Origin: Clostridium thermobutyricum | GTDB lineage: Bacteria; Bacillota; Clostridia; Ch29 | NCBI GenBank assembly: GCA_016841565.1 | Contig: JAENYX010000010.1 | Location: forward strand, 13,998-77,997 | DNA: 64,000 nt | Direction: 5' to 3' | Part shown: positions 5,816-62,353 of the stretch, piece by piece | Layout: each line of letters starts with the position of its first letter | Position numbering within the stretch: position 1 is the stretch's first letter | The notes under the pieces: generated by a model | What the model saw: the letters and a program-made list of their open reading frames with translations, nothing else | Told to the model about the DNA's origin: nothing | Database searches by the model: none | Made by a program: the position numbers and the translations under genes

Positions 5816-5827
5816 CCAACACCCATC

Positions 5828-6409: not shown

Positions 6410-6426
6410 CCAATCACCTGCCAGCG

Positions 6427-6678
6427 CTATATTCTTTGAAACATTATTACTGCAAGCATAAGTCCAATCACTCCTGCAACATTGATGTTTATTACAAAAC
6501 CAAAGACAAGGGAAAGTATCCCTAAATCAAGAAAAAGCGGTTCTTTGATTCCTATTGGAAAGTTGTGCTGCAAAAATGGGAAAAACTGACCCAAATACTG
6601 TCCTAAAAATCCACCAATTATCGCGCCAGTCAACAGGAGCAATACCAGTACCCACGGATTCCTTGTTTTGATTCTCAC
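6427..6678 (-). CDS. Small membrane protein, DUF4321-like
   Basis: Hydrophobic helices with GG..G and LDLG.L...FG patterns; GTG 6678 has SD GGAGGAG; usual neighbour of maf in Firmicutes. Confidence 0.75.
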   Translation of the reverse strand: MRIKTRNPWVLVLLLLTGAIIGGFLGQYLGQFFPFLQHNFPIGIKEPLFLDLGILSLVFGFVININVAGVIGLMLAVIMFQRI

Positions 6679-6706
6679 TACTACTCCTCCTTCAGTTTTT
6701 GTCCTC

Positions 6707-7078
6707 TCAATAAGCGATATCATCGATTTCTGTATCTTGTCCTACTATTTTTATATACACCCTGTTAGGCATGCAGACCGTCATCTGATTAACCCTGCTA
6801 ATCCAGCCTTCCTTTACACATATCTTGTCAGGACAGGTGGAATCCTTTATTCTAATTCTATTGTTGCCTACTTCTATTGTATTATAACCGCGGGAGGAAG
6901 CAACAGTGAATTCCCTGGGGCTGGCGCCCTCAAGCTCTATCCTGCTGTGCTCCTTGCCATCCACCATAACAATGGCATAATTCCCATGGCGGGAATCCAT
7001 AATCATTGTTGTATAATAGATTCCAAATACAGCTGCGGCAATTATCAAAAAAATCAATATTTTATCGTATCTGGTCAT
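6707..7078 (-). CDS. NusG domain II-containing protein
   Basis: N-terminal TM helix; CPDK.C...GWI and VC.PN motifs. Confidence 0.85.
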   Translation of the reverse strand: MTRYDKILIFLIIAAAVFGIYYTTMIMDSRHGNYAIVMVDGKEHSRIELEGASPREFTVASSRGYNTIEVGNNRIRIKDSTCPDKICVKEGWISRVNQMTVCMPNRVYIKIVGQDTEIDDIAY

Positions 7079-7240
7079 ATCATCTTCTCTTTCCGGCCGT
7101 AGTAACACCCCTGCTTTTCCTAGTTTATCATTTTGCTTTTTTCAATACAAGCTACAGAAACAGGAATTTTTGAATCCTTTTATGTTACCATTTTATATTT
7201 ACACTTTCCACCGGTTTATCTCTTAATGGACTTCTTGCTA

Positions 7241-7272
7241 AAAATAGAGATGGGAAACCCCATCTCTATTTT
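7241..7272 (-). terminator. Intrinsic terminator overlapping the hydrolase stop codon
   Basis: AAAATAGAGATGGG-AAAC-CCCATCTCTATTTT, perfect 14-bp stem. Confidence 0.8.
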
Positions 7273-7904
7273 GCAAAGTAATGATTCCCTATTTTTTTGA
7301 CTATCTGTCTCGACCAGATCCAGCTTGAGGTGGCTGTGTTGGGATTGAAATAATAAATGCCCCCGCCTGAAGCATCCCAGCCCTTAAGCGCATTATCAGC
7401 CGCTTTGTACGCAGTATCGTCTGGCTGCATATAGAACTGCCCGTTCTGTACCGGGGTAAAGGCTCCCGGTTGGTATAACACGCCGGCTACGGTATTGGGA
7501 AACCTGCTGTCCCTGACCCTGTTCAGTATAACCGATGCTACCGCTACCTGTCCCTCGAAGGGCTCGCCTCTTGATTCCGCATATACCATCTTAGCCAGTA
7601 GATCTATGTCATTTGTGGAAGCTTTTTGAACGTACGTACTCGGACCCCTCGATGTGGCTGCCTGAGGCCAGGTAATAACCAATTTTTGATTTGGGTATAT
7701 AGCGTTGTTCCAATGGTTATTTGCCCTTTTAATCTCGTTCACAGTTGTTCCGTACCATTGGGATATTTTCCACAAGGTATCCCCCCGGCTTACCGTGTGA
7801 ACGGTAGAAGCCTGGGCTGTAAAGGGAACCGCTGCAACAATCATAACAACCAATGCCAACATAATCATCATTCTATTTAGTTTTTTGATATACTTCCCCT
7901 GCAT
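7266..7904 (-). CDS. LysM-containing cell wall hydrolase (SleB/Hydrolase_2 family)
   Basis: Signal peptide, LysM (HTVSRGDTLWKIS), catalytic AESRGEP...VILNRV...AF motifs. Confidence 0.88.
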   Translation of the reverse strand: MQGKYIKKLNRMMIMLALVVMIVAAVPFTAQASTVHTVSRGDTLWKISQWYGTTVNEIKRANNHWNNAIYPNQKLVITWPQAATSRGPSTYVQKASTNDIDLLAKMVYAESRGEPFEGQVAVASVILNRVRDSRFPNTVAGVLYQPGAFTPVQNGQFYMQPDDTAYKAADNALKGWDASGGGIYYFNPNTATSSWIWSRQIVKKIGNHYFAK

Positions 7905-7981
7905 ACTATCCCTCCCTCATTTGAGTATGTGTGTATTATACAACAGGAGAGGGTCAGAGTCAGTAGGTATATGTTTACATA

Positions 7982-8007
7982 AAAAACCCGTCAATTGACG
8001 GGTTTTT
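7982..8007 (-). terminator. 26-bp perfect palindrome acting as terminator at the pdaB stop
   Basis: AAAAACCCGTCAATTGACGGGTTTTT. Confidence 0.75.
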
Positions 8008-8761
8008 GTCTTCCGGTGTGGTCAATATAATAGTCGGATTTGATTATTAATTCGGAAACTGGTACTATCTTGTAGCCTTCTTTAATAAGCCGGTCAAGTA
8101 TGATTGGCAGAAAATCGGCCACATATTTGGCATTATTGTGGAACAGTATTATTGAGCCCTTGTTTACTTTCTTTAATACCCTGTCTACCACAGGCTCTAC
8201 GCCAAACTCTTTCCAGTCCAGGGAATCCACATCCCACTGTATGCTGTAATAGCCCAACTCCTGTGCCGTCTCTATTACTTTATTGTTATAATCACCAAAG
8301 GGCGGCCTGAAGAGTATAGGGGCTTTTCCGGTAACAGCCTTTATCTTTTCCGACGTGGTTTGCAGTTCCTTTTTTATTTCATCAACCGTAAGCTTTGACA
8401 TTTGGGGGTGGGTAGTCGAATGGTTCCCAATTTCGTGACCCCTTCTGTGAATCTCCTCCAGCACATCCCCATACTTATCTACCCAAAAGCCTACCAGAAA
8501 GAAAGTGGTTTTTACATTGTACTCATCCAGTATGTCAAGTATCCGGGGTGTGTACTGATCACCATAAGCTGCATCAAAGCTTATTGCAATTGTTTTGTGT
8601 TCTGTCTCAACACTATATATGGGTAGTCTTTTATCGTTGTTGAACAGCACCGATAATACTCCGGGAGTATAGCCTTGAGTATAAACTACCGAAACCAGAA
8701 CCAGTATTAGAACCAGCAAAAGCTGTTTGAACATACTCTTCCTTATGAGAAGTATTCTCAT
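7991..8761 (-). CDS. pdaB: Polysaccharide deacetylase, sporulation protein PdaB-like
   Basis: N-terminal TM helix, LPIYSV, ISFDAA.G, GNHS.TH, FRPPFG and ILFH NodB motifs. Confidence 0.85.
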   Translation of the reverse strand: MRILLIRKSMFKQLLLVLILVLVSVVYTQGYTPGVLSVLFNNDKRLPIYSVETEHKTIAISFDAAYGDQYTPRILDILDEYNVKTTFFLVGFWVDKYGDVLEEIHRRGHEIGNHSTTHPQMSKLTVDEIKKELQTTSEKIKAVTGKAPILFRPPFGDYNNKVIETAQELGYYSIQWDVDSLDWKEFGVEPVVDRVLKKVNKGSIILFHNNAKYVADFLPIILDRLIKEGYKIVPVSELIIKSDYYIDHTGRQKPVN

Positions 8762-8991: not shown

Positions 8992-11900
8992 TTAATACTT
9001 ACTGTATATTCTGTACAAAAACACGGCTGCTTCCGCCCTTGTGGTGTTGCCCAACGGATTGACATTATCGCCGCCGCCTACAATCAAACCTTCCTTAACA
9101 ACGGAGGCAACACTGTCTACGGCATAGGCTGCCACAAGAGATTTGTCTGCGAACTTCTCCAGGTCGGAAACAGATGCCTGTGCTTCAAGCCTGTTCAGCA
9201 TTCTTAAGGCTCTCTCGGTCAGTACCATCATGTCCTGCCTTGTAATGCTTGCATCAGGGCTGAATTTGTTGTTTCCTGTGCCGCTGGTGATACCCAGCTT
9301 TCTGGCTATAGCTATCTCTTTAAAGTAATATGCATCCTGGCTTATATCATCGAAGCTCCCGTCAATCCTTGCATCAACACCCAGGGTTCTTACCAGGAAG
9401 CAGAGAAAGTCCGCCCTGGTGATGTTTGTCTGAGGTGCGTATTCTGTTTCCGATATACCGATAAGAATTCCCTTGGATGCAAGGACTTCTATCTGCTTCT
9501 TTGCCCAGGCCGTGTTTCCAAGGTCGTCAAAGGCCTTTGTCACATAGACCACCGCAAAACGACTGAAGTGAGTGGTGGTGAAAGTGACCATACCTGTGGC
9601 AGGCTCATACCTTCCGCTAGGCACCGATACTGCATTGCCACTGCCATCGATGTACCAGATAACGATATGCTCCGGGTCAGCCAGTTCCGCAATGGTAGGT
9701 GTGTGGGGGATGGATACCGTAACCGGTGCGCCGGGATTGTTCCATGAGATGACATCTCCATCCAGCGTCAGGCTCAGGCTGATGAGCGGCCTTTCGCCGA
9801 TGACCGCCTTAATATCAGCGGGAAGATTCGATTTATCACCCTGACCGATGGTGATCTCCGCCGTCCTGCCCTCCGCTCCGGGAATGCCGGAAAGCATATC
9901 CACAGGGAGCATGAGACTGCCGGTATCGGTATTAAAGGTCAGCGTGCCCCCGCCCGAGGTGGAGAGATACGCCACCGGCATTCCGATGGTATAATTTTCT
10001 ACACCGGGAATGGTGGGCATCGTAACGGTTATTCCGTCCTGATCGAAGCTCTCTGTATCAATGAAGGCCGTTCCGGTATCCTTAAAAACCGCAACCGGAA
10101 TAGTTGTTTCATTACCTTTTTCTGCTTTTACGTCCGCTTTATATTCCGGCGTTGCCGGTGTTGACGGGGTTCTTCTTCTGCCACCGCTACCGCCGCCTCC
10201 GTCAGCCGTCCATTTCGCGTAGACGGTTATATTGGCGTTGACCGTTGCCGCAGAGGTAAACTTCGTACCCGAGCCGTTTGTTCCCGTGTACCAGCCACCG
10301 AAGGTATAACCGGTTCTTGTTGGATTGGACGGCCAGCTGCCGCTGCCGATACACTCACCCTCGTTAACGGTTCTCGTGGCATACACCGAGCCTCTGTCAT
10401 TGAAAGTTATGGTATAAGTGGTAACTGGTACCACACTCACTGTTATGGTAAAGTCCTGCGTATAATCCGAGCTTTGGGTCAGTCCATTTGTTATGGTGGC
10501 TCTCACGGTGACGGTGCCCGCCGCCGTGGTGGACAGCATATTGCCGGAGACTGTTGCACCCGTTGTTCCAGCGTTTTGAACGCTCCAGTCGATGGTTTTA
10601 TTTGTGGCGTTTGCAGGAGCGACTGTCCCGTTGAGCGTCAGATCAACGCCTGCGGTCGCTGCCGTCGGCACGCCGGTAATGTCAGTCACCGGCACGAAGG
10701 CGGGCGGTGCTGTGATTAGGTTGATTGTATATATTTTTGTTGTTGTCCCATCCTCTGCGGTCACCTTCACCGTGGCGCTGCCGGGCAGGGCGGATGCCTG
10801 GGTAATATCAACCTGGGCGGCAGGGCCGTTTGCCGTCGCGCCGACCAATGCCGCCGCGCTGCCCGGCACGGTACCGTAGGGAAGCTCCACATTATATGAA
10901 GTGATATCCGCATCAAAACCGCTTATTGTGCCGCCTCCCACCGTCAGGTCGCTCAGGTCGGCGTCATCGGATGGAATGTAGCTTTCCTCCACATGAACCG
11001 TCAAGGTGACGGGGCTACCGATATCGAAGCTTATATCAAATACAAGCGTATCGTTTACCGAAGGCATAAGGCCGGACAGGAAGCTATCCTTAATGGTCAG
11101 GGCGCTACCGGTTACCGTGTAGTCGGTGCCGGAGTTCAGACTGGCTGAGCTGTACACCACGTCTGTAACTATGCTGGCGCTGTTCCAGGTGATTGTAGTG
11201 CTCACATCGCCGGTCGCGCTGAGGTCATAATTGGCCGATGCGGGACTAATGACTGCGTCCACTATCGGCGCATTTTCGCTGATGTCGATCGTCAGCATTG
11301 CCGGGTTGCCTGAATTAAAACTGATACTCAACTCAAGGCTGCCCACAGCCTGGGCTTCCAGGTATTCCTTCTTGATGGTCAGAGTGGCTGTGTATCCGTC
11401 ATTATCGGTGACTGCATAATTGTCCTCGCCAATGGAAGCACCTCCCGCCGTGATGTCGGCAACTGAGCTTGCCTTATTCCATTTTATAGTGGTTGTCACA
11501 TCCTCAGGACCGTTCAGGTAAAAAAAACCTGTTTCAGGATGGATGCCCGCATTGGGATTCTGTACAGGATCATTGGTTTTAATACTAATGGTCAATGTTT
11601 CCGGGTCACCCGTGTTAAACTCAATAGTCAGTATAAGGCTGCCTTCCGGCTTCGTTTGCAGGTATTCCTTCTTGATGGTCAGAGCAGCTGTGGTTCCGTC
11701 GTCATTGGTTACTGTATAATCGTCACCGTATGTCAAAGGAACCGCGCCGGCTTTGACGGTCGACACGCTTTCTGCGCCGTGCCAGGTGATGGTTGTCAGC
11801 ACATCTCCCTCGGCACCTTCCATAAAACTGCCTATGTTAGGAGATATAACAACCGGACCGGAGTCCGATATATTTATTGTGAGGGTTCCGGTAACGCCGT

Positions 11901-13263
11901 TTTCGAAAACTACGGTTAGTTCCAGGCTTCCCAGCTCCTGCAGTAATAGATATTCTTTTTTTATCGTCAGTGTATTTCCGCTGTAGCTGAAATTTTCTGC
12001 TCCGATTGATGTTCCCCCGTTCCTGACATCTGTTACCTGCGCTGCTGAAGCCAGGGTTTTATCGGTAGTCACATCGGCCTGCTGGGAAGGGTTCTTATCA
12101 AAGTCAACAGTATTCGGACTAAATGGCGAAAGGGCAACAAAGCCGATACTGTGGTCATCGGCATAGGTCTGTGCATAAGAGCCTTCAAAGCCGTGAATCC
12201 TCAGGTTTTCATTATGTAAATCAAATGTATTATCGCCAATGGATGTGACGTTGTCGGAAATGATAATGTCGCTTATGTTGCTGCAGGAGTAAAAAGCCTC
12301 TTTATCAATACTGACAACGCTTTTAGGAATAATAAAACTGGATTCACCAAATACATTGGAAAGGTTGGAACAACCGATAAATGCACCAAACCCAATACTG
12401 GTTACTTGAGAATCCTCATAGGACCATGTTAAATTTGTCAAACTGCTGCAGCCATAGAATGTATTGGGTTCGATAGCCGTAACTCCATTTGGAATGCTTG
12501 TTGCAAACAGATTGCTGCAGTTATAAAATGCGGCATCACCGATACTGGTAACGCTTTCCGGAATATAATAGAACTGCAAGTTGCAGCGACTAAATGCATC
12601 GCTGCCGATTGTGGTAAGACTGCTTCCGGCATAAGATTCTATTACCCTGGTCAGACTGCTGCAGCCGAAAAATGTATTATCTTCAATAGTTGTAAGGCCG
12701 CTGGGAATACTTATCTTTTTCAAATCACTGCAACCGAAAAATGCGTTTTGGCCAATACTGGTAACACTATTCGGAATACTATAATCATCATCCGTTAGCA
12801 TAACAATGCTTTCAAGGGAAGCGCATTGGGAAAATGCAGAACTTCCAATGCTTTCAAGACCTGCTTGGTCATAATCATAATCGAATGTTACCTTGGTTAG
12901 GTTTTCGCAGTTGGCAAACGCACCCCCTCCAATACTAACAACGCTTTGGGGAATGGTTACTTCCGTCAGGTCGGTTTTCCAGTTAAGAAAAGTTTCATCA
13001 GCAATAGCCGTGACGGGATAACCGTCAAGAGTCTCCGGGATAAAGAGATGACCGTCAAAGTCCCCAGGCAAACTGGGATAGAAAAAACCGTCTATAGTAG
13101 CCTCATTATCCGTTATAGTATACTCAAAGAAGTCTTCCGGGTTTTCAAAGGCTTGGGCTGAACACGACGGTCCGCCAAAAGGCATAATCCCGACGGCTAT
13201 AGCAACCGCCATAATAATTAAAAAAGCAAAAACCCTTCTTTTTGCCCTCGCTTTTGTTATCAT
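8992..13263 (-). CDS. S-layer-anchored mosaic surface protein: BspA-type leucine-rich repeats, four X2-like Ig domains, cadherin-like beta-sandwich, Big_2, InlB B-repeat, SLH domains
   Basis: Signal peptide; repeated IP.SV.SIG..AF..C..L; four ...LTIKKEYL... repeats; ADLSDL...VTAEDG; PTRTGYTFGGWY; SLH motifs ITRADF, ITRQDM and TTRAEAA. Confidence 0.88.
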   Translation of the reverse strand: MITKARAKRRVFAFLIIMAVAIAVGIMPFGGPSCSAQAFENPEDFFEYTITDNEATIDGFFYPSLPGDFDGHLFIPETLDGYPVTAIADETFLNWKTDLTEVTIPQSVVSIGGGAFANCENLTKVTFDYDYDQAGLESIGSSAFSQCASLESIVMLTDDDYSIPNSVTSIGQNAFFGCSDLKKISIPSGLTTIEDNTFFGCSSLTRVIESYAGSSLTTIGSDAFSRCNLQFYYIPESVTSIGDAAFYNCSNLFATSIPNGVTAIEPNTFYGCSSLTNLTWSYEDSQVTSIGFGAFIGCSNLSNVFGESSFIIPKSVVSIDKEAFYSCSNISDIIISDNVTSIGDNTFDLHNENLRIHGFEGSYAQTYADDHSIGFVALSPFSPNTVDFDKNPSQQADVTTDKTLASAAQVTDVRNGGTSIGAENFSYSGNTLTIKKEYLLLQELGSLELTVVFENGVTGTLTINISDSGPVVISPNIGSFMEGAEGDVLTTITWHGAESVSTVKAGAVPLTYGDDYTVTNDDGTTAALTIKKEYLQTKPEGSLILTIEFNTGDPETLTISIKTNDPVQNPNAGIHPETGFFYLNGPEDVTTTIKWNKASSVADITAGGASIGEDNYAVTDNDGYTATLTIKKEYLEAQAVGSLELSISFNSGNPAMLTIDISENAPIVDAVISPASANYDLSATGDVSTTITWNSASIVTDVVYSSASLNSGTDYTVTGSALTIKDSFLSGLMPSVNDTLVFDISFDIGSPVTLTVHVEESYIPSDDADLSDLTVGGGTISGFDADITSYNVELPYGTVPGSAAALVGATANGPAAQVDITQASALPGSATVKVTAEDGTTTKIYTINLITAPPAFVPVTDITGVPTAATAGVDLTLNGTVAPANATNKTIDWSVQNAGTTGATVSGNMLSTTAAGTVTVRATITNGLTQSSDYTQDFTITVSVVPVTTYTITFNDRGSVYATRTVNEGECIGSGSWPSNPTRTGYTFGGWYTGTNGSGTKFTSAATVNANITVYAKWTADGGGGSGGRRRTPSTPATPEYKADVKAEKGNETTIPVAVFKDTGTAFIDTESFDQDGITVTMPTIPGVENYTIGMPVAYLSTSGGGTLTFNTDTGSLMLPVDMLSGIPGAEGRTAEITIGQGDKSNLPADIKAVIGERPLISLSLTLDGDVISWNNPGAPVTVSIPHTPTIAELADPEHIVIWYIDGSGNAVSVPSGRYEPATGMVTFTTTHFSRFAVVYVTKAFDDLGNTAWAKKQIEVLASKGILIGISETEYAPQTNITRADFLCFLVRTLGVDARIDGSFDDISQDAYYFKEIAIARKLGITSGTGNNKFSPDASITRQDMMVLTERALRMLNRLEAQASVSDLEKFADKSLVAAYAVDSVASVVKEGLIVGGGDNVNPLGNTTRAEAAVFLYRIYSKY

Positions 13264-13300
13264 TCTTAATTCCTCCTTCCAAATTCTACTTTAATATCAC

Positions 13301-13370
13301 CATCATACCGAATTCAGGCCATTTTTCGTATACACATGTCATAACCGGGCCGTTTTTTGTATAAATTGGG
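13301..13370 (-). promoter_or_regulatory. Paired LytTR (VirR-like) boxes plus -10 element, copy 1
   Basis: Minus strand CCCAATTTATAC (13359-13370) and CCCGGTTATGAC (13338-13349), 21-bp period; TATGAT at 13302-13307. Confidence 0.78.
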
Positions 13371-13440
13371 CCAGTTGGTTATTTAAAGGGAAAGAATGCT
13401 GGTACATTTCTACAAAATCCCGTGATTTAAACCGTGGAGT

Positions 13441-13487
13441 AAAAAATTCCCCGTAAGCAGTACTAAATCTTACTGCCACGGGAATTT
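13441..13487 (-). terminator. Terminator of the 1322-aa lipoprotein gene
   Basis: AAATTCCC.CGT..GCAGTA / TACTGC.ACGGGAATTT stem, then a T tract on the minus strand. Confidence 0.7.
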
Positions 13488-13525
13488 GTTTATAAATTTA
13501 GGTAATTTATAATTCCTTCTTTCTA

Positions 13526-16500
13526 TTACCAAGCATAAGCATGCATTCTCAATATGTAAGTTTTGGTAGTAATACAATCCTGGGCAGTTACTGTAATAGT
13601 AGCTTGGTATTCTCCATCATAATGCCTTGATTCTGTTGTCCCGCTGCTGCCGAATTCCTCGTACAGATATGTGCTATCATCACTGAGATGGATAATTTCG
13701 ATAATAATTGATGCATTATCGTCTTCTGCAGCAAGCGTAAAGGACAAGGAAGGATCCAGCTCCGGATCAATGTCTAAATAATAAGTTGTTCTTGCAGCAT
13801 CAAATTCCGGCGGCTCCATATTTCCGTAAACACAGCCGCTAACTGTAAGCTCACTTAAGTTGGCATTATCGGATAGTGGGGGAATTTCCGGTTCATTTGA
13901 ATTTTTTGTTGACGACCTCCTCGGAGAGTGAAGGGGCCTTGTGCTCACCCTTAAAATATCACTGTAGGGGGACAAAAACCCCAGGGAATCCACTGCTCTG
14001 ACTGTATAGTAGTATACCGTTCCCGGCTGCAGTCCTCTGTCTGTAAACCCTGTATAACCGGTAGTATCAATTAATTTCATTGCCTCCGGTGTAATACCTT
14101 TCTTCGAACCGTCATCTTCAATTCGGTATATCTGATACTCCTTGATACCGACTTGACTCTTGGACGCTGTCCAAGAAAATCTGATTTCTTCTTTAGTTCT
14201 ATTTTTGAGTTTTAAGTTTGTTGGTGCTGAAGGATAGTCTATTGCTTCATAAGCCCCCATATCGATGACGGGAGCTTCCCCCTCGCCGGTATCTTCCACC
14301 ATTTGTACATCCATCATTCTGTTGTTACCGTCCAAGTCGGTAAGGAAGGCAGGGGCCACGCTGTTGCTCCCGGCATCGATGCAGGGAGAGGAAGCGGCCA
14401 ACCGCAAGTTTAGGGGAGTGCCTGAATACACATCAAATTTCCCGCCCTCAATAAAAACCGGGGCTCTATCGATATTATCCGTGCCGGCACCTTGCCATCC
14501 ACCCTTGATACAGCTGTAGTTTACCTCAACAGCTGCTTCATTGGCGAATGATATCTGCCTGCTGCTCCCATCCTGCCAGATAATGCTGTTGTTGATAACC
14601 GCCTTGGCGTTTTCCCCGGCGAGTACAACTGCCGGGCCTGCGGGCTCTTCTAATGAGTAATTGCCGCTTAGGGTACAGTTGGTAATGGTAATTTCAGCTG
14701 AGCCTCCGACCTCGATGCTTCCGTGTTCCGACATCCAGGTAAAGTTGAGTGCAAAGACGGAGTTGTCGATGTTCAAAGGCACATCGCCTTGGACATAGAT
14801 TGCCGCGCCTTCCTCGAATGATTGGTTTAAGCTGAAAACGCAGTTGGATATTCTTCCGGATGCAGGTTCAATTCTAACCCCGGCAAATTCACTGCCCAGC
14901 TGGTCCAGCAACTCGCCTTCATGTCTGTTGTCGTATAAATACGCTACGGCTCCTCCCATTTGGGCGTAATTACCGGTAAAAGTACAGTTCTCAATTATTC
15001 CGTCGCCTCCCGCATTGAAGATCGCGCCGCCGGAACCGTCGGTATAGTTGTTGACGAAATCGCAATTCTTGATGATCGGCGAAGCGTTATAGACATTGAG
15101 AATAGCCCCGCCCAAGCCATTTGGCACAACATTCTCCGTAAAGGTACAGTTGAAAATACCGGGTGAGCTCAACGTATTGCACAGCGATGCAGCAAAAATA
15201 CCCATATTGCGTGTAAAAGTGCAGTTGGAAATGACGGGTGAGCTTTTAAACAGCGTCATACCACCGGCATAAAAGCCGCTAAAGAAGCCAAAGTCTTGTA
15301 ACCGGTCCCCGCCCCCGCCTGATATACAAAGACCATCCAACATGGTTGAATTTGAAATATCCACACCTGTAATTATCGTGTAACAATCATCTTCCCATTT
15401 CCATACATGTGTGTTATGCGTTAGACCAAAAACTCCATCCGCAATGCTTAGCCAATCTTCTCCCTTGTCCCTTAAGGCCTTGTAGACAACGTATTCCCTG
15501 GCAATACTGTAAACATCCTTTGTCGTTTTGGCATCCAGCTTACCAACAAAATCATTGGGTAACGATTGTAGCAATCGGTCCGGGTCCCAATGGCCTAATG
15601 CGTCCATAATAGCGGTGAACTCCCGCTGGTCCAAGCTGGTGTAACCGAGCACACCCTTTCCTTGTTTAAACAGACTCTTGAAAGTGTCGGCGTCGAGGCT
15701 GTCATCCAGAATAAACGCGTATGCATCGCCCACGGCATCCAAAATCCTAACCTCGTCAAAGACGCTCTCTTCCTTTACTTCCCCGCTATTATCGCCCTGC
15801 AGGTCCCCGCTTAAAATTGTTTTGTTTTTTTCCAAATCCCTGCTGTTTAAATTGAAGGTGTCGGCGTCTTCATTGCCTTCAAAGCCACCATAGATACTTA
15901 CACCGTTTTTAAGCATAAATGTCTTGTCCCTCGGGTTCTCCGGAATGTTTCCATGCATGTCCTTTGTGGGTTCGTATGTACCGGCGGCTATCCATATCCT
16001 GTCCCCTTGACTGGAAGCATCAATTGCATCCTGAAAGTTATTGAACGCATCTTCCCATGTGCTCCCGTTATTTTTACCCCGTGCACTACAGTCAACAAAA
16101 ATGGTTGATGTTACCTTTTCTGTGGGTCCACCGGACTCTTCTGCAGACCGATTAAATAAAAAGTCAATTTCAGCAAATACGGCTGTGTATGTGGTGTTGT
16201 CGGTTACCAGCGTTTCTTCCGGCCGCACCGGATTTCCCTTGGAGTCCTGCCACTCTTTAAAATAATAGCCCGGGTCGGGAGAAGCTTTAGGAATTAAAGA
16301 TTTTGACGGCATTTCTCCATAAGCGCATGACTGCTTCAAATTTCCTTTAATACTGCCGTTACTGCCTGCAACATAAGTTATTTTGGGAGCATCTTTGATC
16401 AACAGAGGAATAACAAGGGGCTCCGATGCAATATTCGTGTTGCTGTTTGTGCCCTCGTTGCTTTCCATCCATATATGCATGGAATAACTGCCTAAATCTG

Positions 16501-17494
16501 CTTTGGAAGAACCGATAGACGCTGTGTTTGAGTCGGCATCATAAGCCATAATACCGGTTTGATCAATGGTATAATCAATAGAGCTTTCACTCGCAGATTG
16601 TTCTAATGTACAGCGGATAAACTGGTTTTTTTGAGGAGCGTGTACATTGTGCAGAATAATCTTTTGGCCCTTGAATACTTCAAGGGCGCTCTCGTCCGCT
16701 TTAAATCTGCCCATGCGCTCCGAGTCAAAGACAGTCAGTTTAACAGTTTTTCCATTTAAACTGTACATTGTATCGGCATCAGTCAAATGGGGAGTGCTTG
16801 CAGGTATTTCCGAGCCCTTTTGCGTCTCAGATACAAAGGCTATCCTATCCGGGTCTATTACCATAGCCGGATAAACAGGTACCGGCTTGTCGATGGACAT
16901 GGTAATGAACCGGATGGTATCGTCATCACCACCCGGTGCGTCCGGGATGCATTTAATTCCATATACTGAATCCTCACTTAAATTTTCATAATTACCTTCA
17001 TGCCTGAGAAAATAGTCGGTAGGTCTCCGGTAGCGCTTGAAATACGCAGGATTCCCATTTAAAATGGGTGCCGGAGGAGCACCTATAATTGCTAACGTGT
17101 TTATTTCAATTCGGGAGGGTATAAAAATCCCTCCGTATTTGTCGGCATACAGAGCCTGCTTCTCAGAAGGTGAAAATATGGATTTTGCATACATATTCCT
17201 TAAATATAAATCAATAAATGAGCCTTTATAGTCATTGCTCGGCCCGTTATATATAAGAGGCAGTACCTGTCCATCTTTTTTTATTGGCTCCCGGGCCAAA
17301 AACATTAGATGTGACACTGAAAAGTCCCAGGCAATATCTTGGCCCCTGTCGTCGGTGCCATAATTGACTGTCATATAGACTCTGTTATCAGGGTCACCGT
17401 TACAGCCGGTAAGTATTACTGCCGACAAAATAATAAGAACAGATATAAATAGAAAAGCAAAAATTCTCCTTTTTGTCTTTGATTTTCTTATCAT
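13526..17494 (-). CDS. Large surface lipoprotein: InlB-like repeat, right-handed beta-helix with choice-of-anchor-Q-like end, fibronectin type III and cadherin-like beta-sandwich domains
   Basis: Lipobox LTGC; IFVD..A.G.NNGSTWEDAF..FQDAI; repeated P.I.NC.F..N; LRLAASSPCIDAG..DLDG..R..IDMGAYE; FN3 YYYTVRAVD; no SLH domain. Confidence 0.82.
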   Translation of the reverse strand: MIRKSKTKRRIFAFLFISVLIILSAVILTGCNGDPDNRVYMTVNYGTDDRGQDIAWDFSVSHLMFLAREPIKKDGQVLPLIYNGPSNDYKGSFIDLYLRNMYAKSIFSPSEKQALYADKYGGIFIPSRIEINTLAIIGAPPAPILNGNPAYFKRYRRPTDYFLRHEGNYENLSEDSVYGIKCIPDAPGGDDDTIRFITMSIDKPVPVYPAMVIDPDRIAFVSETQKGSEIPASTPHLTDADTMYSLNGKTVKLTVFDSERMGRFKADESALEVFKGQKIILHNVHAPQKNQFIRCTLEQSASESSIDYTIDQTGIMAYDADSNTASIGSSKADLGSYSMHIWMESNEGTNSNTNIASEPLVIPLLIKDAPKITYVAGSNGSIKGNLKQSCAYGEMPSKSLIPKASPDPGYYFKEWQDSKGNPVRPEETLVTDNTTYTAVFAEIDFLFNRSAEESGGPTEKVTSTIFVDCSARGKNNGSTWEDAFNNFQDAIDASSQGDRIWIAAGTYEPTKDMHGNIPENPRDKTFMLKNGVSIYGGFEGNEDADTFNLNSRDLEKNKTILSGDLQGDNSGEVKEESVFDEVRILDAVGDAYAFILDDSLDADTFKSLFKQGKGVLGYTSLDQREFTAIMDALGHWDPDRLLQSLPNDFVGKLDAKTTKDVYSIAREYVVYKALRDKGEDWLSIADGVFGLTHNTHVWKWEDDCYTIITGVDISNSTMLDGLCISGGGGDRLQDFGFFSGFYAGGMTLFKSSPVISNCTFTRNMGIFAASLCNTLSSPGIFNCTFTENVVPNGLGGAILNVYNASPIIKNCDFVNNYTDGSGGAIFNAGGDGIIENCTFTGNYAQMGGAVAYLYDNRHEGELLDQLGSEFAGVRIEPASGRISNCVFSLNQSFEEGAAIYVQGDVPLNIDNSVFALNFTWMSEHGSIEVGGSAEITITNCTLSGNYSLEEPAGPAVVLAGENAKAVINNSIIWQDGSSRQISFANEAAVEVNYSCIKGGWQGAGTDNIDRAPVFIEGGKFDVYSGTPLNLRLAASSPCIDAGSNSVAPAFLTDLDGNNRMMDVQMVEDTGEGEAPVIDMGAYEAIDYPSAPTNLKLKNRTKEEIRFSWTASKSQVGIKEYQIYRIEDDGSKKGITPEAMKLIDTTGYTGFTDRGLQPGTVYYYTVRAVDSLGFLSPYSDILRVSTRPLHSPRRSSTKNSNEPEIPPLSDNANLSELTVSGCVYGNMEPPEFDAARTTYYLDIDPELDPSLSFTLAAEDDNASIIIEIIHLSDDSTYLYEEFGSSGTTESRHYDGEYQATITVTAQDCITTKTYILRMHAYAW

Positions 17495-17524
17495 TCTTAA
17501 TTCCTCCTTATATCACTATATAAT

Positions 17525-17594
17525 CATCATACCGAATTCAGGCCGTTTTTCGTATACACATGTCATAACCGGGCCGTTTTTTGTCAAAACTGGG
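17525..17594 (-). promoter_or_regulatory. Paired LytTR (VirR-like) boxes plus -10 element, copy 2
   Basis: Minus strand CCCAGTTTTGAC (17583-17594) and CCCGGTTATGAC (17562-17573); TATGAT at 17526-17531. Confidence 0.78.
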
Positions 17595-17687
17595 TCATAT
17601 GGCTATTGAATGGAAGCTTTTGCCAAGGGTCAATTATCTCGGTTCCTTTGACACGTATCTGAAGCTAAAAAACAATTTTCCGGATGC

Positions 17688-17732
17688 AAAAAAGGCCAGG
17701 GGTTTCATCCTGTATGGCAAAATCTCCTGGCC
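17688..17732 (-). terminator. Probable terminator of the 775-aa SLH protein gene
   Basis: GGCCAGG...CCTGGCC inverted repeat followed by T6 on the minus strand; large loop. Confidence 0.6.
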
Positions 17733-17794
17733 GTTAACAATTACTTGATTACCCGCCTTAGTTTTACTGTTACAAAATTGTCCCTGCGTCTCTT

Positions 17795-20122
17795 TTACCA
17801 ACCGAGCGCTCTAAGCAGCTTCAAGATAGTCGCCAGGGCTTCGGCCCTGGTGATTGGCGCATTGGGCTGGAGAGTCCCGTCCGAATAACCCGTCAGCACT
17901 CCACTGGAAACCGCCTTTTTTGCCCAATCCGGTACGTCGGCAGAATCTGTGAATTGCGAAAGGTCGACCGGTTCGTAATCCGGTAAGCGATTGAGCATGT
18001 TGCTGACCATTGCTGCCGCTTCGATCCTGGTGATTATGGCATCGCCGGCAAAATCATCGGGTGTCCTTCCGGTTGTCAATCCGCTGGATAGTGCCCCGGC
18101 AATAAAGTCCCGGGCCCAGCCGGGAACGCCTTTCATGCCTGCCAGAACCGCATCGGATTGCTGTCCCTGGGGAAGCAATATGCCGTAGAGCTTCTGCTCA
18201 TCCTCAGGCATGCAGCCAAGGGTCCTCGCTAGGATTGCCGTAAACTCGGCTCTGGTGATGTTCTGGTCAGGGCCAGCCATGCGGTCGATGCTGTCAGGAT
18301 CATCGGGGTTTGGGTATCCTTCGATCAGGGCAAGGCCGTTCATTCTGTTGACGACATCCTCGGACCAGTGACCGGAAATGTCGCTGAAACGGGGTTGTTT
18401 GACTGCAAACATCGCCGTATAGCAGTTTGCGTAACCCCCGTCATTCTTTACCATGACCGAATCATCCGCTTGGGTATAGCTGGCGAGGGCAACCCATTTT
18501 TCAAATCTATCGTTCCAGTAATAAACCCGCTGTTGCAGCCCCTTTACTTTTGCTTGGGCAAGTTTATCCTTATCGGGCGCCGGCGCAACGAAGCTTGCAC
18601 CGGGATCGGCAATCATAGTCACCTGCTCCACAAGTGGGACATGACCGGGCCACCTAGCAACAAAAGCATGGCTGGATACATCTGCTACCGAAGGGGTTGG
18701 AGTGACCCTCGAATGACTGCTTCTGCGGCCATGGCTGCCATTGTTAGTGTTCTCCGCCCACCGGGCGTACAGCGTGACGTTGGCCGTTCCCATGGGGAAG
18801 GTCTCCCCAGCCTGGTAGGTTGACCCGCTTCCGTTCGCCGCCGTGTTCCATCCGGCGAAGGTGTAGCCTTCTTTTGTCAGGCTGCCGGTGTTGCCCAGAA
18901 CCGTTACTTCTGCTCCTTCTTCATGGCTGCTGTTGTCTACCGGAACATCTCCTTGGTCGTTACCGTTGCCGTCATAGGTCACGGTGTAGGTAGGGAGGTA
19001 ACGTTTTACCGTAACACGGTCTTCATGTTCCCCGTCAGCGTAAGCCACATAGGGTATGCCCGAATCCATAAAGAGGGATATGGTGGAATAATCTGTGACC
19101 CAACCTACGTTTTCGCCGCCCACCGGCTGCCACCCGTTTACCGGGTCATATACCGATGCCACTACGGATTCGCTGTCGTCCTGATAGGCCACGTAGGGTG
19201 TGTCCCCGTCCACAAAGAGAGATATGGAGGATTGCTGCACGCCCGCGCCGGGTATTCCACCCAGGGTCTGCCAATCTCCGGAACTGTCCTGATAGCGAAC
19301 CACGATATTGCCATTGTCCTGATATGCTACAAAGGGCGTACCTCCGGATATAAAAAGGGATACAGTAGAGTAGGCTCCAGTCGGAATGTTAATTGAGGCC
19401 TCATCTTGCCAGGTGCCGGAGTCATAGCTGCTCACAACAACTTCATCATCATCATTCTGATAGGCCACGTAATGGGTACCCTCTTCGTCCACAAAAAGAG
19501 AGATTGAGGATGGCGCCCAAGAAGTACTTGAATATACATTCCCCAAGGGCTGCCATCCAATTTCGGGATTATATACACTCGCGCTGACACTGGAATCAGG
19601 AGGGGCGCTCACAGGATACTCATAGGCCACGTATGGTTTGCCCTGGTCTGTGAAGAGGGAGATGGATGTGTAGGCAGTTCCACCATCCACAGGAGCCCCG
19701 CCATACAAATCCCAGTTTCCGGTGCCGTGGTTATACACCTTCTCTACGACAGAGCCGCCGTCATCCTGATAGGCTATATAAGGCATACCTTCATCCACGG
19801 AAAGAGAAACGGAACAACACGCTAAGTCATGTGAACTGTCGACCACACCACCCACCTGCCGCCAGCTTCCATTTCTGTACTCGCTGACTACAATGCTGCC
19901 GTCGGTGTCCTGATAGGCCGCGTAAGGGGTTCCCTGGTCCACGAAAAGCGAAACGGAGGTTACCTGCGGTCTGCTATCATCAGTAACTACCGGATTATCT
20001 GAAAAACCCGGACTGCCGACCGGTTGCCAGCCAGCAGATGCCGCAGCAGGCAGAACAGCCATCACCATCAGGACAACCAGGACCGTAAACAAGCAGCGTT
20101 TTTTCCTCGTTATTTTAAACAA
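17795..20122 (-). CDS. SLH-anchored protein with seven tandem repeats of about 50 aa (probable beta-propeller) and an InlB B-repeat
   Basis: Signal peptide ending ASA; seven W...S(I/V)SLF.D.G.PY.AYQD repeats; TVTYDGNG...[11 protein letters not shown]; SLH motifs ITRAEF, ITRIEAA and ITRAEAL. Start codon uncertain (see findings). Confidence 0.85.
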
Positions 20123-20212
20123 CTCCTTTCAAATCCGGCTATTTGATGCCAGGTCTTATTTAATTCTGACTCTTTTACCGGAAAACTAATTTGGCTAATT
20201 TCTATAGTATCC

Positions 20213-20281
20213 ATTCTATCTTATAAGCCAAATTGTTTTTACATACATGTCATAACTGGGCCGTTTTTTGTATAAATTGGG
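20213..20281 (-). promoter_or_regulatory. Paired LytTR (VirR-like) boxes plus -10 element, copy 3
   Basis: Minus strand CCCAATTTATAC (20270-20281) and CCCAGTTATGAC (20249-20260); TAGAAT at 20213-20218, same offset as copies 1 and 2. Confidence 0.78.
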
Positions 20282-20324
20282 ACACATCGCTATCGGAACG
20301 GTGTTATAAATTTGACTTAAGCTG

Positions 20325-20353
20325 TTGAAATACCGTTTTTTACCTGTTACTAT
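20325..20353 (+). promoter_or_regulatory. Sigma-A-type promoter of the sensor kinase
   Basis: TTGAAA-17 bp-TACTAT. Confidence 0.6.
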
Positions 20354-20392
20354 TAAGTGGTAATCAATAATTTTGCGGAAGGCGGTGAGATA

Positions 20393-22201
20393 ATGTTTCA
20401 AAGCAAAAAAATAAAACCGGCGGCTCTCATACCAGCGGCTTTGTTCCTGATTTCCGTTATTTTGTTTTTAATCCTTGCTGCGTATATCTCCGCCCACCCG
20501 TACATCAGCCGGGGAGTTACAGACATATCAGACAAGTGGCAGTATCATACTGACGCCGATCCTGTGCCGAAACCCATAGAACTGCCTGGCGGCACCAAAG
20601 GCATATACTTAAACGAAAACTGGTATCTGACCTATACACTCCCGGATATCGGGCAGAATGCCGCCATCTTGTTCCGCTCAGATTATTTGAGAGTTATCGC
20701 CTCGCTTGACGGGGAGGAAATCTATCGCTACGGCTATGGGGAATCCGTCTTCTCCACACCGGGGAAGAAGCTGATTATGATTCCGCTGCCCGATGAGTAC
20801 GCGGGCAAAGAAATGACGCTGACGCTGACCCCGACGATGAATCTGCGGGCTTACGGCATTTATATGGGCGATGAGGCGTCGCTTCTGTCCATGACCGTGC
20901 GCGATATGCTACCATCGTTTGTGCTCGGTACGGCGGTGCTGCTGCTGGGGCTTGCACTGCTTACCGTATACTTCATGCAGAGAAGTAAGAATCAAGCGGT
21001 CGCAGCAGACTTCTGGTTCGGGATTTTCGTTGTTTTGGTCGCCGTGTTTATACCCAGCAAGAGCTTTTTGCTTTTAATGCTGCTCGACCCTGTTTCGGCG
21101 TCCGTAATGCCGATGGTCGTGTCCTTTTTGCTGCCCTGCGCCGTTTTGTTGTTTGCCCGCGCTTCCTGTCCGAGGTTTAAGGTTCCGCTTTTGATTGCCT
21201 TAGCTATACATATCACCGGTTATCTGCCGACCTCGCTTATGCAGCTTTTAAGCCCCAATCCGCCTACCGAACTTCTGGCGGTTTTCGTTTTTCTCGTCCC
21301 GGCCTACTATACGCTGGTCGTTATTGCTTTTGCCTATGAAATACGCAGCGGTAAAAAGGATTATCGAAGACTGACATGGTCCGGTTTGCTGATTGTAGGG
21401 ATGTTTATTATCGACAGGGTCAACAGCCTTATGGGCAACCCGCTGCATTTGAAGGATGTGGAGCAGTTCACCAAGTTCGGGCTTGTCATTTTTATTGCTG
21501 TCGAAGTAATCGGGCGCGTCAGAGAATACTATAAAGCCTCAGCACAGCTTCTAGCGGACTATCAGGCGTCACAAGTCAAAAACAAGCTTGCCCTTGAACA
21601 CTTTGACGATGTTAAGCAATATATGCAGGAAGTCTATACCCTCAACCACGACATCCATCATCACTTCGGAGCCCTTGGGCACCTGCTGGAGCAGGGCGAC
21701 CTGTCCCGGGCCCGCGAATATTTAGCCCAGCTTATAGGAGATTATTCGCTGGACAGGCAAATAGTTTATTCAAAAAATCAACTTCTCAACTATATTATCG
21801 GGTATACAGTCAAACAGGCCAAAGCAAAGGATTTCCGCTTTAAACATGACATTAACCTGCCGGAAAGCGTATGCATAAGCGACAGCGACTTTTACAGCTT
21901 GTTCATCAATATCATCGATAACGCCGTTGAGGCCTGTGAGGCGGTGAAGGACGCCGATAACAGGAGCATTGAGCTTGCCTGCAATATGAAAAACGGCTTT
22001 ATGCACGTTTCATGCAAAAACAGCAAGGAAAACGACGTAATAACAGAGGACGGAAAATACCTCTCAACAAAGTCCTATGATACAAAGCACGGGTTGGGTA
22101 TAGGTATCATTGGAGGTATCGTGGAAAAATACAACGGCGTCATGGACGTTGAATATAACGCCGGCTGGTTTTCAATAAAGCTGGTGGTAAAAGCGGAATA
22201 A
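20393..22201 (+). CDS. Membrane sensor histidine kinase, GHKL family (AgrC/VirS-like core) with extracellular sensor domain and about 7 TM helices
   Basis: H-box HDIHHH, N-box NIIDNAVEAC, G-box HGLGIG; N-terminal TM helix, about 150-aa extracellular domain, then a multi-TM region. Start set at ATG 20393. Confidence 0.9.
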   Translation: MFQSKKIKPAALIPAALFLISVILFLILAAYISAHPYISRGVTDISDKWQYHTDADPVPKPIELPGGTKGIYLNENWYLTYTLPDIGQNAAILFRSDYLRVIASLDGEEIYRYGYGESVFSTPGKKLIMIPLPDEYAGKEMTLTLTPTMNLRAYGIYMGDEASLLSMTVRDMLPSFVLGTAVLLLGLALLTVYFMQRSKNQAVAADFWFGIFVVLVAVFIPSKSFLLLMLLDPVSASVMPMVVSFLLPCAVLLFARASCPRFKVPLLIALAIHITGYLPTSLMQLLSPNPPTELLAVFVFLVPAYYTLVVIAFAYEIRSGKKDYRRLTWSGLLIVGMFIIDRVNSLMGNPLHLKDVEQFTKFGLVIFIAVEVIGRVREYYKASAQLLADYQASQVKNKLALEHFDDVKQYMQEVYTLNHDIHHHFGALGHLLEQGDLSRAREYLAQLIGDYSLDRQIVYSKNQLLNYIIGYTVKQAKAKDFRFKHDINLPESVCISDSDFYSLFINIIDNAVEACEAVKDADNRSIELACNMKNGFMHVSCKNSKENDVITEDGKYLSTKSYDTKHGLGIGIIGGIVEKYNGVMDVEYNAGWFSIKLVVKAE

Positions 22202-22235
22202 GGCGAGCGTGCCGTAAACCACACATCTCGCCTTA
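22199..22235. terminator. Inverted repeat between the convergent kinase and regulator genes, containing both stop codons
   Basis: TAAGGCGAG...CTCGCCTTA. Confidence 0.55.
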
Positions 22236-22955
22236 AAATCTGTCCTTGCCGAGGAAGTTAATAAACGCCCTTTTGGCGTCGGGGTAACAGGCCTTGCTGA
22301 TGGGGATGGTTTGTCCCGTCGCGATGGTAAATTTCGTCCTCGTAATCTGGGACACATGGTTTAAGTTGACTAGAAAGCTCTTATGGCAGGATATAAAGCT
22401 GCTTGAGGGTAGCTGGTTTGCAAACTGGCTCAGCGAGCCGTATGTTTCGTAATTTTTGCTTTTTGCTGTAATTATGACTTTTCTGCCCTTCGATTCCAGA
22501 TACACGATATCTTTAAACGGAATGCGACTGACCGAGCCGCTTACTCTTATGTCGAGATAGTTTTTCTCGAATCTTCTTTCGAGGTCGTACATCAGGACAC
22601 CTGCGAGCTTTTCCTTATCAACGGGCTTTAGTATATAATGGAGTGCATGCACGTCGTAGCCCTCGAAAACAAAGTTTGGGGAGCTTGTGATAAAAACGAT
22701 ACTGACGTCCTTATCTTTTTCACGTATCCGATGTGCTGCCTCTACGCCGCTCAGTTCATCCATTATAATATCGAGGAAAAGAATATCGAATTTTTTGCCT
22801 TGTCTCACAATGGCGTCCGCTATGTCCTCTCCGGACGAAAATCGGGTAACGTCATGACCGGCCTCCTGCTCCTCAAGTGCATGGTCGATAAGAGCACACA
22901 AATTATTCAGCTGTTTAATATCATCGTCGCACACTGCAACCTTGTATCGGCTCAT
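22233..22955 (-). CDS. LytTR family response regulator (AgrA/VirR-like)
   Basis: Receiver domain (VCDD, FLDIIM, YILKP) and LytTR domain (IVYLES.GR, CHKSFLVN, IPISK). Confidence 0.93.
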   Translation of the reverse strand: MSRYKVAVCDDDIKQLNNLCALIDHALEEQEAGHDVTRFSSGEDIADAIVRQGKKFDILFLDIIMDELSGVEAAHRIREKDKDVSIVFITSSPNFVFEGYDVHALHYILKPVDKEKLAGVLMYDLERRFEKNYLDIRVSGSVSRIPFKDIVYLESKGRKVIITAKSKNYETYGSLSQFANQLPSSSFISCHKSFLVNLNHVSQITRTKFTIATGQTIPISKACYPDAKRAFINFLGKDRF

Positions 22956-23259
22956 GTACACCTCCGGGAGTCAGGACCACAGGAATAACCGCCGCCAACC
23001 CCATTTTTTTACTGATTATACCAAAGAATACGGTTTTCATCAATAAACGGCCATGTCTTCATCCGTTATTCCATCAGAAACATCGCCGGACAACGGCATT
23101 ACCCGAATGGGGATGATAATGTATCCAAACGGTGGTCAGAATAGCGCTATAAAAGCTATCTGCGGACTATGAGACCAAGCAGGGAATTTTAAAGGTGGAA
23201 ATTATCTGCAATGGCATGGGCATACTGAACATCTCTGAGCTAACAGATGAAATGCTACG

Positions 23260-62196: not shown

Positions 62197-62345
62197 AAAA
62201 AAAACAGACGGTATCCACCATGTGGATACCGTTATAAATGTGCCATTTATAACTCCTTTCCAACATGGGAGGCATAACAGTTTCCCGTTACACCCTATCG
62301 GCTTGGCATCATGGTCTCCCGTAGACGCTCAAGCTCGGAGTCTTA
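62197..62345 (-). ncRNA. Moco/W-cofactor riboswitch (P3-less, tungsten-associated type) with intrinsic terminator
   Basis: RNA CUCCGAGCUUG...CAAGCCGAUAG-GGUGUAACGG-GAAA-CUGUUAUGCC-UCCCAUGUUGGAAAGGAG; terminator ACGGUAUCCAC-AUG-GUGGAUACCGU-CUG-U8 at 62197-62232. Confidence 0.9.
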
Positions 62346-62353
62346 TTGATAAT

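Follow-up and report, generated by a model that had tools for sequence, protein, structure and literature searches.

A probable compact two-component regulon of the VirR type, with three surface-protein genes, in an uncultured Peptococcaceae-like Firmicute

The stretch of DNA considered here, called the window in the following, comprises 64,000 nucleotides of contig JAENYX010000010.1 (assembly GCA_016841565.1). In it, three large surface-protein genes, g1, g2 and g3, lie beside the genes of a membrane sensor kinase and a LytTR response regulator, and each of the three is preceded by a pair of short direct repeats, or boxes. The question that this locus raises is whether the boxes are the operator through which the neighbouring two-component system controls the three genes. 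In the present work, we examine this question by means of pattern searches in the window, comparison with related loci, and analysis of the encoded proteins. We will argue that the locus is very probably a small VirR-type two-component regulon, not described before, in an uncultured Peptococcaceae-like Firmicute of sludge and digester habitats, and that activation of the surface-protein promoters by the adjacent regulator is its likely mode of action.

The boxes are 12-bp direct repeats with a 21-bp period and the consensus CCCAATTWTKAC-AAAAAACRG-CCCRGTTWTGAC, and all three pairs are found on the minus strand, which is the coding strand of g1, g2 and g3. At P1, the promoter of g1, the pair spans 13338-13370 and consists of the distal box CCCAATTTATAC (13370-13359), the spacer AAAAAACGG and the proximal box CCCGGTTATGAC (13349-13338). 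The pair at P2, before g2 (17562-17594), has the distal box CCCAGTTTTGAC (17594-17583), the same spacer and the proximal box CCCGGTTATGAC (17573-17562), while the pair at P3 (20249-20281), which sits between g3 and the divergent kinase gene, combines the distal box CCCAATTTATAC (20281-20270) and again the same spacer with the proximal box CCCAGTTATGAC (20260-20249). When the window is searched for the pair pattern CCCRRTTWWKAC-N9-CCCRRTTWWKAC, these three matches are the only ones obtained, even with three mismatches allowed, compared to 0.01 expected from 100 shuffles. Single boxes are not significantly enriched in the window (16 found, 9 expected). Since the 9-nt spacer and the next four bases, ATGT, are identical in all three sites, the conserved unit extends beyond the boxes alone, to ca 40 bp.

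Each box pair is followed by a −10 hexamer, and the gap between the proximal box and this hexamer is always 30 nt. The hexamers, on the minus strand, are TATGAT for P1 (13302-13307), TATGAT for P2 (17526-17531) and TAGAAT for P3 (20213-20218), and transcription from P1 would be predicted to start near 13295. The −35 hexamers, located 17 nt upstream of the −10, are poor (TACGAA, TACGAA and TAAAAA, respectively), and for this reason none of the three promoters is called by a consensus promoter scan. The sequences of P1 and P2 do not differ at all between the proximal box and a point past the −10, and they are near-identical over the whole stretch from the boxes to the start codon, which means that they are recent duplicates and not independent promoters. 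Past the stop codon of g2 there is a hairpin with a T-run (13441-13482, minus strand; by eye, CCCGTGGCAGTA...TACTGCTTACGGGG AATTTTTT), a probable terminator dividing g2 from P1, and past that of g3 a hairpin GGCCAGG...CCTGGCC followed by TTTTTT (17688-17732, minus strand, also by eye), which probably divides g3 from P2 in the same way. Each gene would therefore form its own transcription unit.

The six 12-mers that the original prediction had placed before the three surface genes are thus confirmed at the positions given, as are the −10 hexamers at constant spacing behind poor −35 elements. The box pairs had been called identical; they are real, on the minus strand, and near-identical. The argument that had been put forward as the strongest, namely the same spacing at independent promoters, is weakened by the finding that P1 and P2 are duplicates, as it does not apply to these two.

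Some smaller observations on the boxes and their surroundings can be recorded at this point. The distal box of P3 is polymorphic between strains at position 10 (window 20272), the window and the Logan contig L002 having CCCAATTTATAC and GCA_016841135.1 (L001) having CCCAATTTACAC. Among the 11 sites known from the window and from other genomes, the AA at nucleotides 12-13 after the proximal box is invariant (for instance, window 13326-13325 and 20237-20236) and closes the −35-like hexamer (T.CGAA, TAAAAA, TGCAAA), and conservation also extends to the two bases that adjoin the proximal box downstream (AT or AA). Finally, a weak third half-site precedes the distal box by 21 bp at three kinase-divergent promoters, in the window at about 20291-20302 on the minus strand (CACCGTTCCGAT), in L021 at about 8715-8726 (CACTGTTTTGGT) and in L025 at 3706-3717 (CACTGTTTCGGC). 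The three sequences are homologous, so that their conservation may reflect descent only.

We now turn our attention to the related loci. Kinase orthologues with 58-89% identity are found at eight distinct loci, L016, L018, L019, L021, L024, L025, L026 and L027, into which near-copies were merged (L017, L029 and L030 into L016, L020 into L019, and L022 and L023 into L021). At every one of the eight, a box pair with the 21-bp period is present in the kinase-divergent spacer and points away from the kinase, and the convergent regulator gene is present at all of them except L026. The link between boxes and two-component system that had been proposed from the window alone is thereby supported. The 11 sites, three from the window and eight foreign, have a −10-like hexamer at 30 nt in nine cases and at 29 nt in one (L021), the foreign hexamers at 30 nt being TAACAT, TAAAAT, TACATT, TATGAT and TATGCT. 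The kinase start codon, in contrast, lies at variable distances from the distal box, 74 to 111 nt.

A position weight matrix (PWM) was built from the eight sites of other genomes only, with the window sites excluded. It scores P1, P2 and P3 at 46.4, 45.5 and 47.7 bits, respectively, while the next best site in the 64 kb reaches 6.7 bits and the maximum in 20 simulated windows is 14.6 bits. A scan of this kind had been suggested together with the original prediction, and it picks out only the three window sites. This is independent evidence that is absent from the argument made within the window. In the alignment of the 11 sites, the information content per position is 1.09 bits for the distal box, 1.14 for the spacer and 1.34 for the proximal box, compared to 0.42 for the flanks, and the contrast between boxes and flanks also holds in the seven sites whose flanks are non-homologous. 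Across the aligned sites, the spacer consists of AAAAAA and three variable bases.

The clade in which the system occurs is a small one. The regulator is encoded identically in contig JAENZS010000003.1 of GCA_016841135.1, which differs from the window by 75 substitutions in 20.7 kb and therefore belongs to a closely related strain rather than being the same record. Beyond that, the orthologues of the regulator have 53-73% identity, after which the values fall to at most 40%, and word-based and metagenome searches with the kinase return the same small clade only. Regulators at ca 36% identity sit in different architectures, and the boxes are absent from those loci. The DNA runs that contain the locus come from sludge and other metagenomes, and the relatives are recorded under the names Peptococcaceae bacterium and uncultured Pelotomaculum.

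Next, we consider the proteins of the two-component system. The sensor histidine kinase (20393-22201, plus strand; 602 aa from the ATG at 20393), assigned by Pfam, structure model and orthologue alignment, is made up of a first transmembrane helix, an all-beta extracellular domain of ca 120 residues (about 40-160), seven transmembrane helices, a SpoOB-like/DHp helix with an invariant HDIxHH motif, and a HATPase_c_5 domain (72.3 bits, cut-off 22). Among nine orthologues, no variation is seen at H419, in the N510 box or in the G567-G569 box. A HATPase_c_5 domain after a helical, His-bearing dimerisation region, joined to a polytopic membrane sensor, places the kinase in the HPK10 group (AgrC/ComD/VirS-type). 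An AlphaFold model based on nine orthologues has low confidence, with a predicted local distance difference test (pLDDT) value of 54, and displays an N-terminal helix, eight beta strands at about 50-160, seven helices, a long helical region and a GHKL domain. In a fold search with this model, the AgrC cytoplasmic chimera 6e52/6e95 ranks 1 (jointly with BceS, 8g3a) and 3; the search recovered the kinase core only, and the confidence of the model is too low to assign the extracellular fold.

The sensor part of the kinase matches 7TMR-DISM_7TM (PF07695) with 24.4 bits, which is below the cut-off of 29, and two of the nine orthologues match weakly. 7TMR-DISMED1/2 gives no match in the kinase, and no Pfam family matches the extracellular 140 residues, even at E<=10. 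When the first 400 residues were used as the query of an exhaustive HMMER search, ca 380 representatives were obtained at E<=0.001, most of them 540-610 aa long. Ten sampled homologues have HATPase_c_5, HisKA/HATPase_c, hybrid or GGDEF outputs, and some homologues exceed the 7TMR-DISM_7TM threshold (P0124, with a GGDEF output, 30.0 bits; P0152, 43.1 bits). The sensor of the kinase thus appears to be a divergent 7TMR-DISM-type module that is joined to an AgrC-type core.

The response regulator (22233-22955, minus strand; 240 aa from the ATG at 22955, the start also used in the public record) has the REC+LytTR architecture according to Pfam and orthologue alignment, with 58.5 bits for Response_reg (cut-off 30.2) and 79.3 bits for LytTR, PF04397 (cut-off 22.6). 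The acidic pocket D10/D11, the phospho-acceptor D62, T90/S92 and K110 are invariant in 11 orthologues, and so are the LytTR motifs FIxxHKS and PISK. Its closest relatives in the PDB are 3d6w (LytTR domain) and ComE (4cbv), with AgrA (3bs1) also among them, and in equivalog tests it matches none of LytR, BtsR and AgrA.

The two genes are convergent and do not form an operon. Their stop codons are 31 bp apart, and the gap is filled exactly by an inverted repeat, GGCGAG-N19-CTCGCC (22202-22232), that may be a terminator shared by kinase and regulator. The convergent order is kept across the clade, and it is unusual for a two-component pair. In the promoter scan, consensus-like promoters with a TG element are found for both genes, TTGAAA-17-TACTAT for the kinase (20325-20353, plus strand), which is kept in L021 and L025, and TTGATG-17-TATAAT for the regulator (23015-23043, minus strand). 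Neither of these promoters has boxes according to the single-box and PWM scans of the window, and the two genes are therefore probably constitutive and not autoregulated. The region upstream of the regulator was also considered as a possible location of an autoinducer peptide gene, but this was rejected, as no conserved small open reading frame (ORF) was found there.

The three putative target genes, all on the minus strand, were characterised by their ORFs, Pfam matches and N-termini. g1 (8992-13263) encodes a 1423-aa exported protein with a Sec signal peptide, BspA-type LRR_5, four CBM_X2, cadherin-like and Flg_new domains, and three C-terminal SLH domains; it has orthologues in L021 (67% identity) and L016 (90% over the first 515 residues). 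g2 (13526-17494) encodes a 1322-aa lipoprotein with the lipobox LTGC, a right-handed beta-helix, fn3 and Flg_new_2, and Pfam finds no SLH domain in it; its orthologue adjoins the kinase in L027 (95% identity) and L025 (91%). g3 (17795-20122) encodes an SLH-anchored protein of 765-775 aa, with a signal peptide, Flg_new and SLH, and no family match in the first ca 380 residues. The start codon of g3 is uncertain within 20092-20135: the TTG at 20122 gives a positively charged n-region, KITRKKR, but abuts GGAG, and the start in the public record, at 20092, leaves out the n-region of the signal peptide.

From their sequences, the products of g1, g2 and g3 are thus all predicted to be exported surface proteins. 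This part of the expectation of an adhesin/lectin set stands, and adhesin is a reasonable label, while the label lectin is more tentative. The identities given earlier to the adjacent kinase and LytTR regulator agree with the HATPase_c_5 and REC+LytTR assignments, the genes being convergent. The interval 13301-22955, to which the regulon had been assigned, contains g2, g3, the kinase and the regulator, and g1 lies outside it.

On the basis of these results, we consider the following mechanism likely: the convergent kinase phosphorylates the LytTR regulator next to it, which then binds the boxes as a dimer and activates the three surface-protein promoters with weak −35 elements. In this mechanism, the membrane kinase would sense an extracellular cue via the all-beta domain and the 7TMR-DISM-like seven-helix module, and autophosphorylate via its AgrC/VirS-type (HPK10, HATPase_c_5) core. 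The phosphate would then be transferred to D62 of the regulator, and the phosphorylated regulator would bind the two 12-bp repeats as a tandem dimer. The centres of the boxes would fall near −69.5 and −48.5, and the repeats, being 21 bp apart, are on one face of the helix. The bound regulator would recruit RNA polymerase to promoters with a good −10 and a poor −35, such that the three separately terminated genes would be switched on, giving two SLH-anchored proteins (g1 and g3) and one lipoprotein (g2). It is important to point out that the sequence features, the domains of the proteins, and the conservation of the boxes and of their spacing beside the kinase in relatives are observed directly, while we infer which protein binds the boxes, whether it activates, where transcription starts and what signal is sensed.

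A number of points weigh against this mechanism. With P1 and P2 being duplicates, the window effectively holds two independent promoters. In GCA_049366715.1, the kinase and the regulator are split across contigs, with the regulator in L015 (10001-10723, 73% identity) and the kinase in L026 (10001-11809, 80%). The boxes remain beside the kinase, where they precede a decayed gene, and none are present within 10 kb of the orphan regulator, which makes the linkage of the boxes to the regulator specifically an indirect one. The site at 12611 in L016, where a type I restriction-modification island has taken the place of the downstream gene, lacks a −10 at 30 nt. The six-adenine (A6) part of the spacer is conserved like the boxes, which is unusual for LytTR sites and could point to another factor or to a required bend. 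The compost RNA contigs described below show transcription only, their ends reflecting assembly and not transcript ends. Finally, the scans covered the 64-kb window and short metagenome contigs, and diverged sites elsewhere in the genome are possible.

The split genome also speaks for a scenario in which the boxes are a real operator that is bound by an unlinked regulator, either another LytTR protein or a different factor, with the neighbouring system controlling something else. We regard this as unlikely. The boxes co-occur with the kinase at 8/8 loci and with the convergent regulator at 7/8, the repeat length, the 21-bp period and the position are those of LytTR/VirR sites, and the motif is absent at the loci of more distant LytTR regulators. 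Another option is that no regulator is involved, and that the ca 40-bp block is merely a promoter module copied along with duplicated surface genes, for instance an A-tract UP-like element. The near-identity of P1 and P2, the common upstream flank of L016a and L016b, and the invariant A6 tract would all fit with such copying. However, the boxes and the 30-nt geometry persist at P3, L018, L019, L021, L024 and L026, where the flanks and the downstream genes have wholly diverged, and a UP element leaves the internal direct-repeat structure unexplained. The −35 is moreover poor at every site, so that an unaided sigma-A promoter would be weak. This option thus appears very unlikely to us.

It can also be envisaged that the regulator does bind the boxes, but that its main effect is on the divergent kinase promoter, as autoregulation, or that it represses the surface genes. 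In every genome one box pair lies between the kinase and a surface gene, and the weak third half-site in the window, L021 and L025 is 21 bp nearer to the kinase, as would suit this scenario. It fails to account for P1 and P2, which have boxes with no kinase gene nearby, and for the distances, which vary on the side of the kinase start and are fixed on the side of the surface-gene −10. The kinase also has a good promoter of its own, and a location upstream of a poor −35 is the position of an activator. We accordingly consider this scenario very unlikely as well. Activation of the surface-protein genes by the adjacent regulator is thus the reading that we retain.

How large the regulon might be was addressed with scans at different scales. 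The strict pattern, applied to 185,579 species genomes (one per GTDB species), gives 12 loci, among which L007 is the single non-repeat homologous match, located ca 5 kb from the orthologous regulator in GCA_964413055.1. The other 11 were rejected as tandem-repeat or chance matches in unrelated phyla; an Oscillibacter match, L009, was discarded as it has no relevant genes. In a metagenome in which the organism is present at ca 70x, the contigs that match the 60-bp block at 85% identity or more account for P1, P2 and P3 only. With no further site in the window and one match in the genome scan, this suggests that the regulon is small and local.

As to expression, a search of RNA runs for the locus found none with the window's own sequence. 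Two compost metatranscriptomes contain a ca 95% relative of the L027 type, and their contigs cover the g2, the kinase and part of the regulator of this relative, which shows that those genes are transcribed. The coverage ends no more than ca 15 nt from where the g2-type gene is predicted to start. As the contigs break at repeats or at branch points, at which the promoters of paralogues begin to differ, and as DNA may be present in the libraries, no start site is drawn from this.

The comparison of the loci brings out a further aspect, namely that the position divergent from the kinase holds different genes in different relatives. In L027 (760-4746) and L025 it is occupied by the g2 orthologues described above, in L021 (8843-12877) by the g1 orthologue, and in L018 (12815-17089) by an unrelated PKD/cadherin protein. 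Decayed gene remnants are found in L019 (12547-13100) and L026 (9400-10000), and a type I restriction-modification island in L016 (12534-12744). The content thus ranges from one gene in L027 to three in the window, where g3, g2 and g1 stand in tandem, and to the remnants and the island. In L016, a split g1 orthologue lies across the regulator from this position and has a box pair of its own. In this metagenome-assembled genome, labelled Pelotomaculum, the orthologue (5522-8507) consists of two ORFs of 523 and 466 aa with the middle of the protein missing, which can be due to an internal deletion or a frameshift.

Judged from these sequences, the kinase-divergent position looks like a hot spot of surface-gene turnover at which the box pair is always retained. 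Taken together with the properties of the kinase, this leads to a more tentative proposal, which we put forward as possible rather than probable: a non-quorum HPK10/LytTR pathway, in which a 7TMR-DISM-like receptor with an extracellular beta domain of a kind not described before is placed on an AgrC-type core, would serve a kinase-divergent expression slot whose surface genes are exchanged, duplicated or lost among close relatives.

The only other feature of the window to be mentioned is a molybdenum/tungsten cofactor riboswitch (RF01055, 69.6 bits) at 62237-62352 on the minus strand, upstream of a minus-strand gene cluster.

For a lineage without genetics, the uncultured Peptococcaceae-like anaerobes of sludge, digesters and compost, the present results provide a cis-element that can be tested together with its putative regulator and targets, and they extend the VirR-type box architecture well outside the pathogenic clostridia. 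If the proposed activation is true, such organisms would remodel their surface, with SLH-anchored LRR/CBM_X2 proteins and a beta-helix lipoprotein, in response to a signal. It is unusual for a 7TMR-DISM-like sensor to be fused to an AgrC-type core as in this kinase, and the ligand of the kinase would tell what the cells attach to or sense. The expression slot, if it exists, would mean that the same signal drives a changing adhesin repertoire among relatives. The understanding of LytTR regulation itself is left unchanged.

It remains to compare the system with known ones. The 7TMR-DISM receptors include RetS and LadS of Pseudomonas. Like these receptors, the kinase is predicted to have a single helix at its N-terminus, followed by a beta-rich extracellular domain and seven further helices; it differs in falling below the Pfam threshold (24.4 vs 29 bits), in having no 7TMR-DISMED2 match, and in its output, which is of the HPK10 type and not of the HisKA type or that of LytS-type kinases. 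That a seven-helix kinase can have a LytTR regulator as its partner is known from BtsS/BtsR (PMC10653868).

With AgrC/AgrA of Staphylococcus aureus and ComD/ComE of Streptococcus pneumoniae, the system has in common the HATPase_c_5 kinase core and the REC+LytTR regulator, and AgrA and ComE bind in tandem to direct repeats that precede suboptimal promoters (PMC4227749, PMC4005675). Neither in the window nor at the related loci is there an AgrB/AgrD-like, peptide-precursor or other conserved small ORF beside the system. With no boxes at the promoters of the system itself, there would be no autoinduction loop either, unlike in Agr and Com; given the lack of linked precursor or processing genes and of boxes at the kinase and regulator promoters, the system does not qualify as Agr-type peptide quorum sensing. 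The sensor also has a large extracellular domain, in contrast to Agr/Com, and the proximal box would be centred near −48, compared to about −60 for AgrA.

The closest parallel is with VirS/VirR of Clostridium perfringens, which likewise pairs a LytTR regulator with an HPK10-type kinase. VirR recognises two imperfect repeats directly upstream of the −35, on the same helical face and at the same relative position in all targets (PMC2838878). Activation requires both boxes and is lost when 5 bp are inserted between them (PMC4963840, PMC4747519, PMC2838878). A LytTR-type operator has imperfect direct repeats, 9-12 bp long and spaced by about two helical turns, ahead of the −35 of a promoter that depends on an activator. 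The elements described here have the features of such an operator, with 12-bp repeats at a 21-bp period upstream of a poor −35 in three window and eight foreign sites, and share with VirR the one helical face, the fixed position and the common core CCAnTT-n15-CCAGTT. The VirS/VirR regulon is small and direct, with secreted or surface products (PMC2838878, PMC4963840, PMC4747519, PMC4877802), and the same appears to be the case here.

The similarity to the VirR box that had been noted originally therefore stands as far as the core and the period are concerned, and not for the full motif, CCAnTT-n15-CCAGTT-n3-CA(c) (PMC4963840, PMC4747519). This has 0 matches in the window, because the tail of the box is ATGAC, one base shorter, and not nnnCAc. 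The core CCAnTT-n15-CCAGTT matches P3 only, and with CC[AG]GTT allowed, all three sites are matched (3 matches vs 0.1 expected). Set against the VirR motifs FxRxHrS and SKHR, the regulator reads FISCHKS and ISKA, such that the Arg of the former and the HR of the latter are not kept.

Besides the ATGAC tail and the conserved A6 spacer, the system is distinguished from VirS/VirR by the ca 120-residue extracellular beta domain and 7TMR-DISM-like membrane module of its kinase, by kinase and regulator genes that are convergent, each with its own promoter, by targets that are SLH and lipoprotein surface proteins instead of toxins or small RNAs, and by its host, an environmental Peptococcaceae-like anaerobe. 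The element would thus appear to work like VirR boxes, yet it differs from the motif of Clostridium perfringens.

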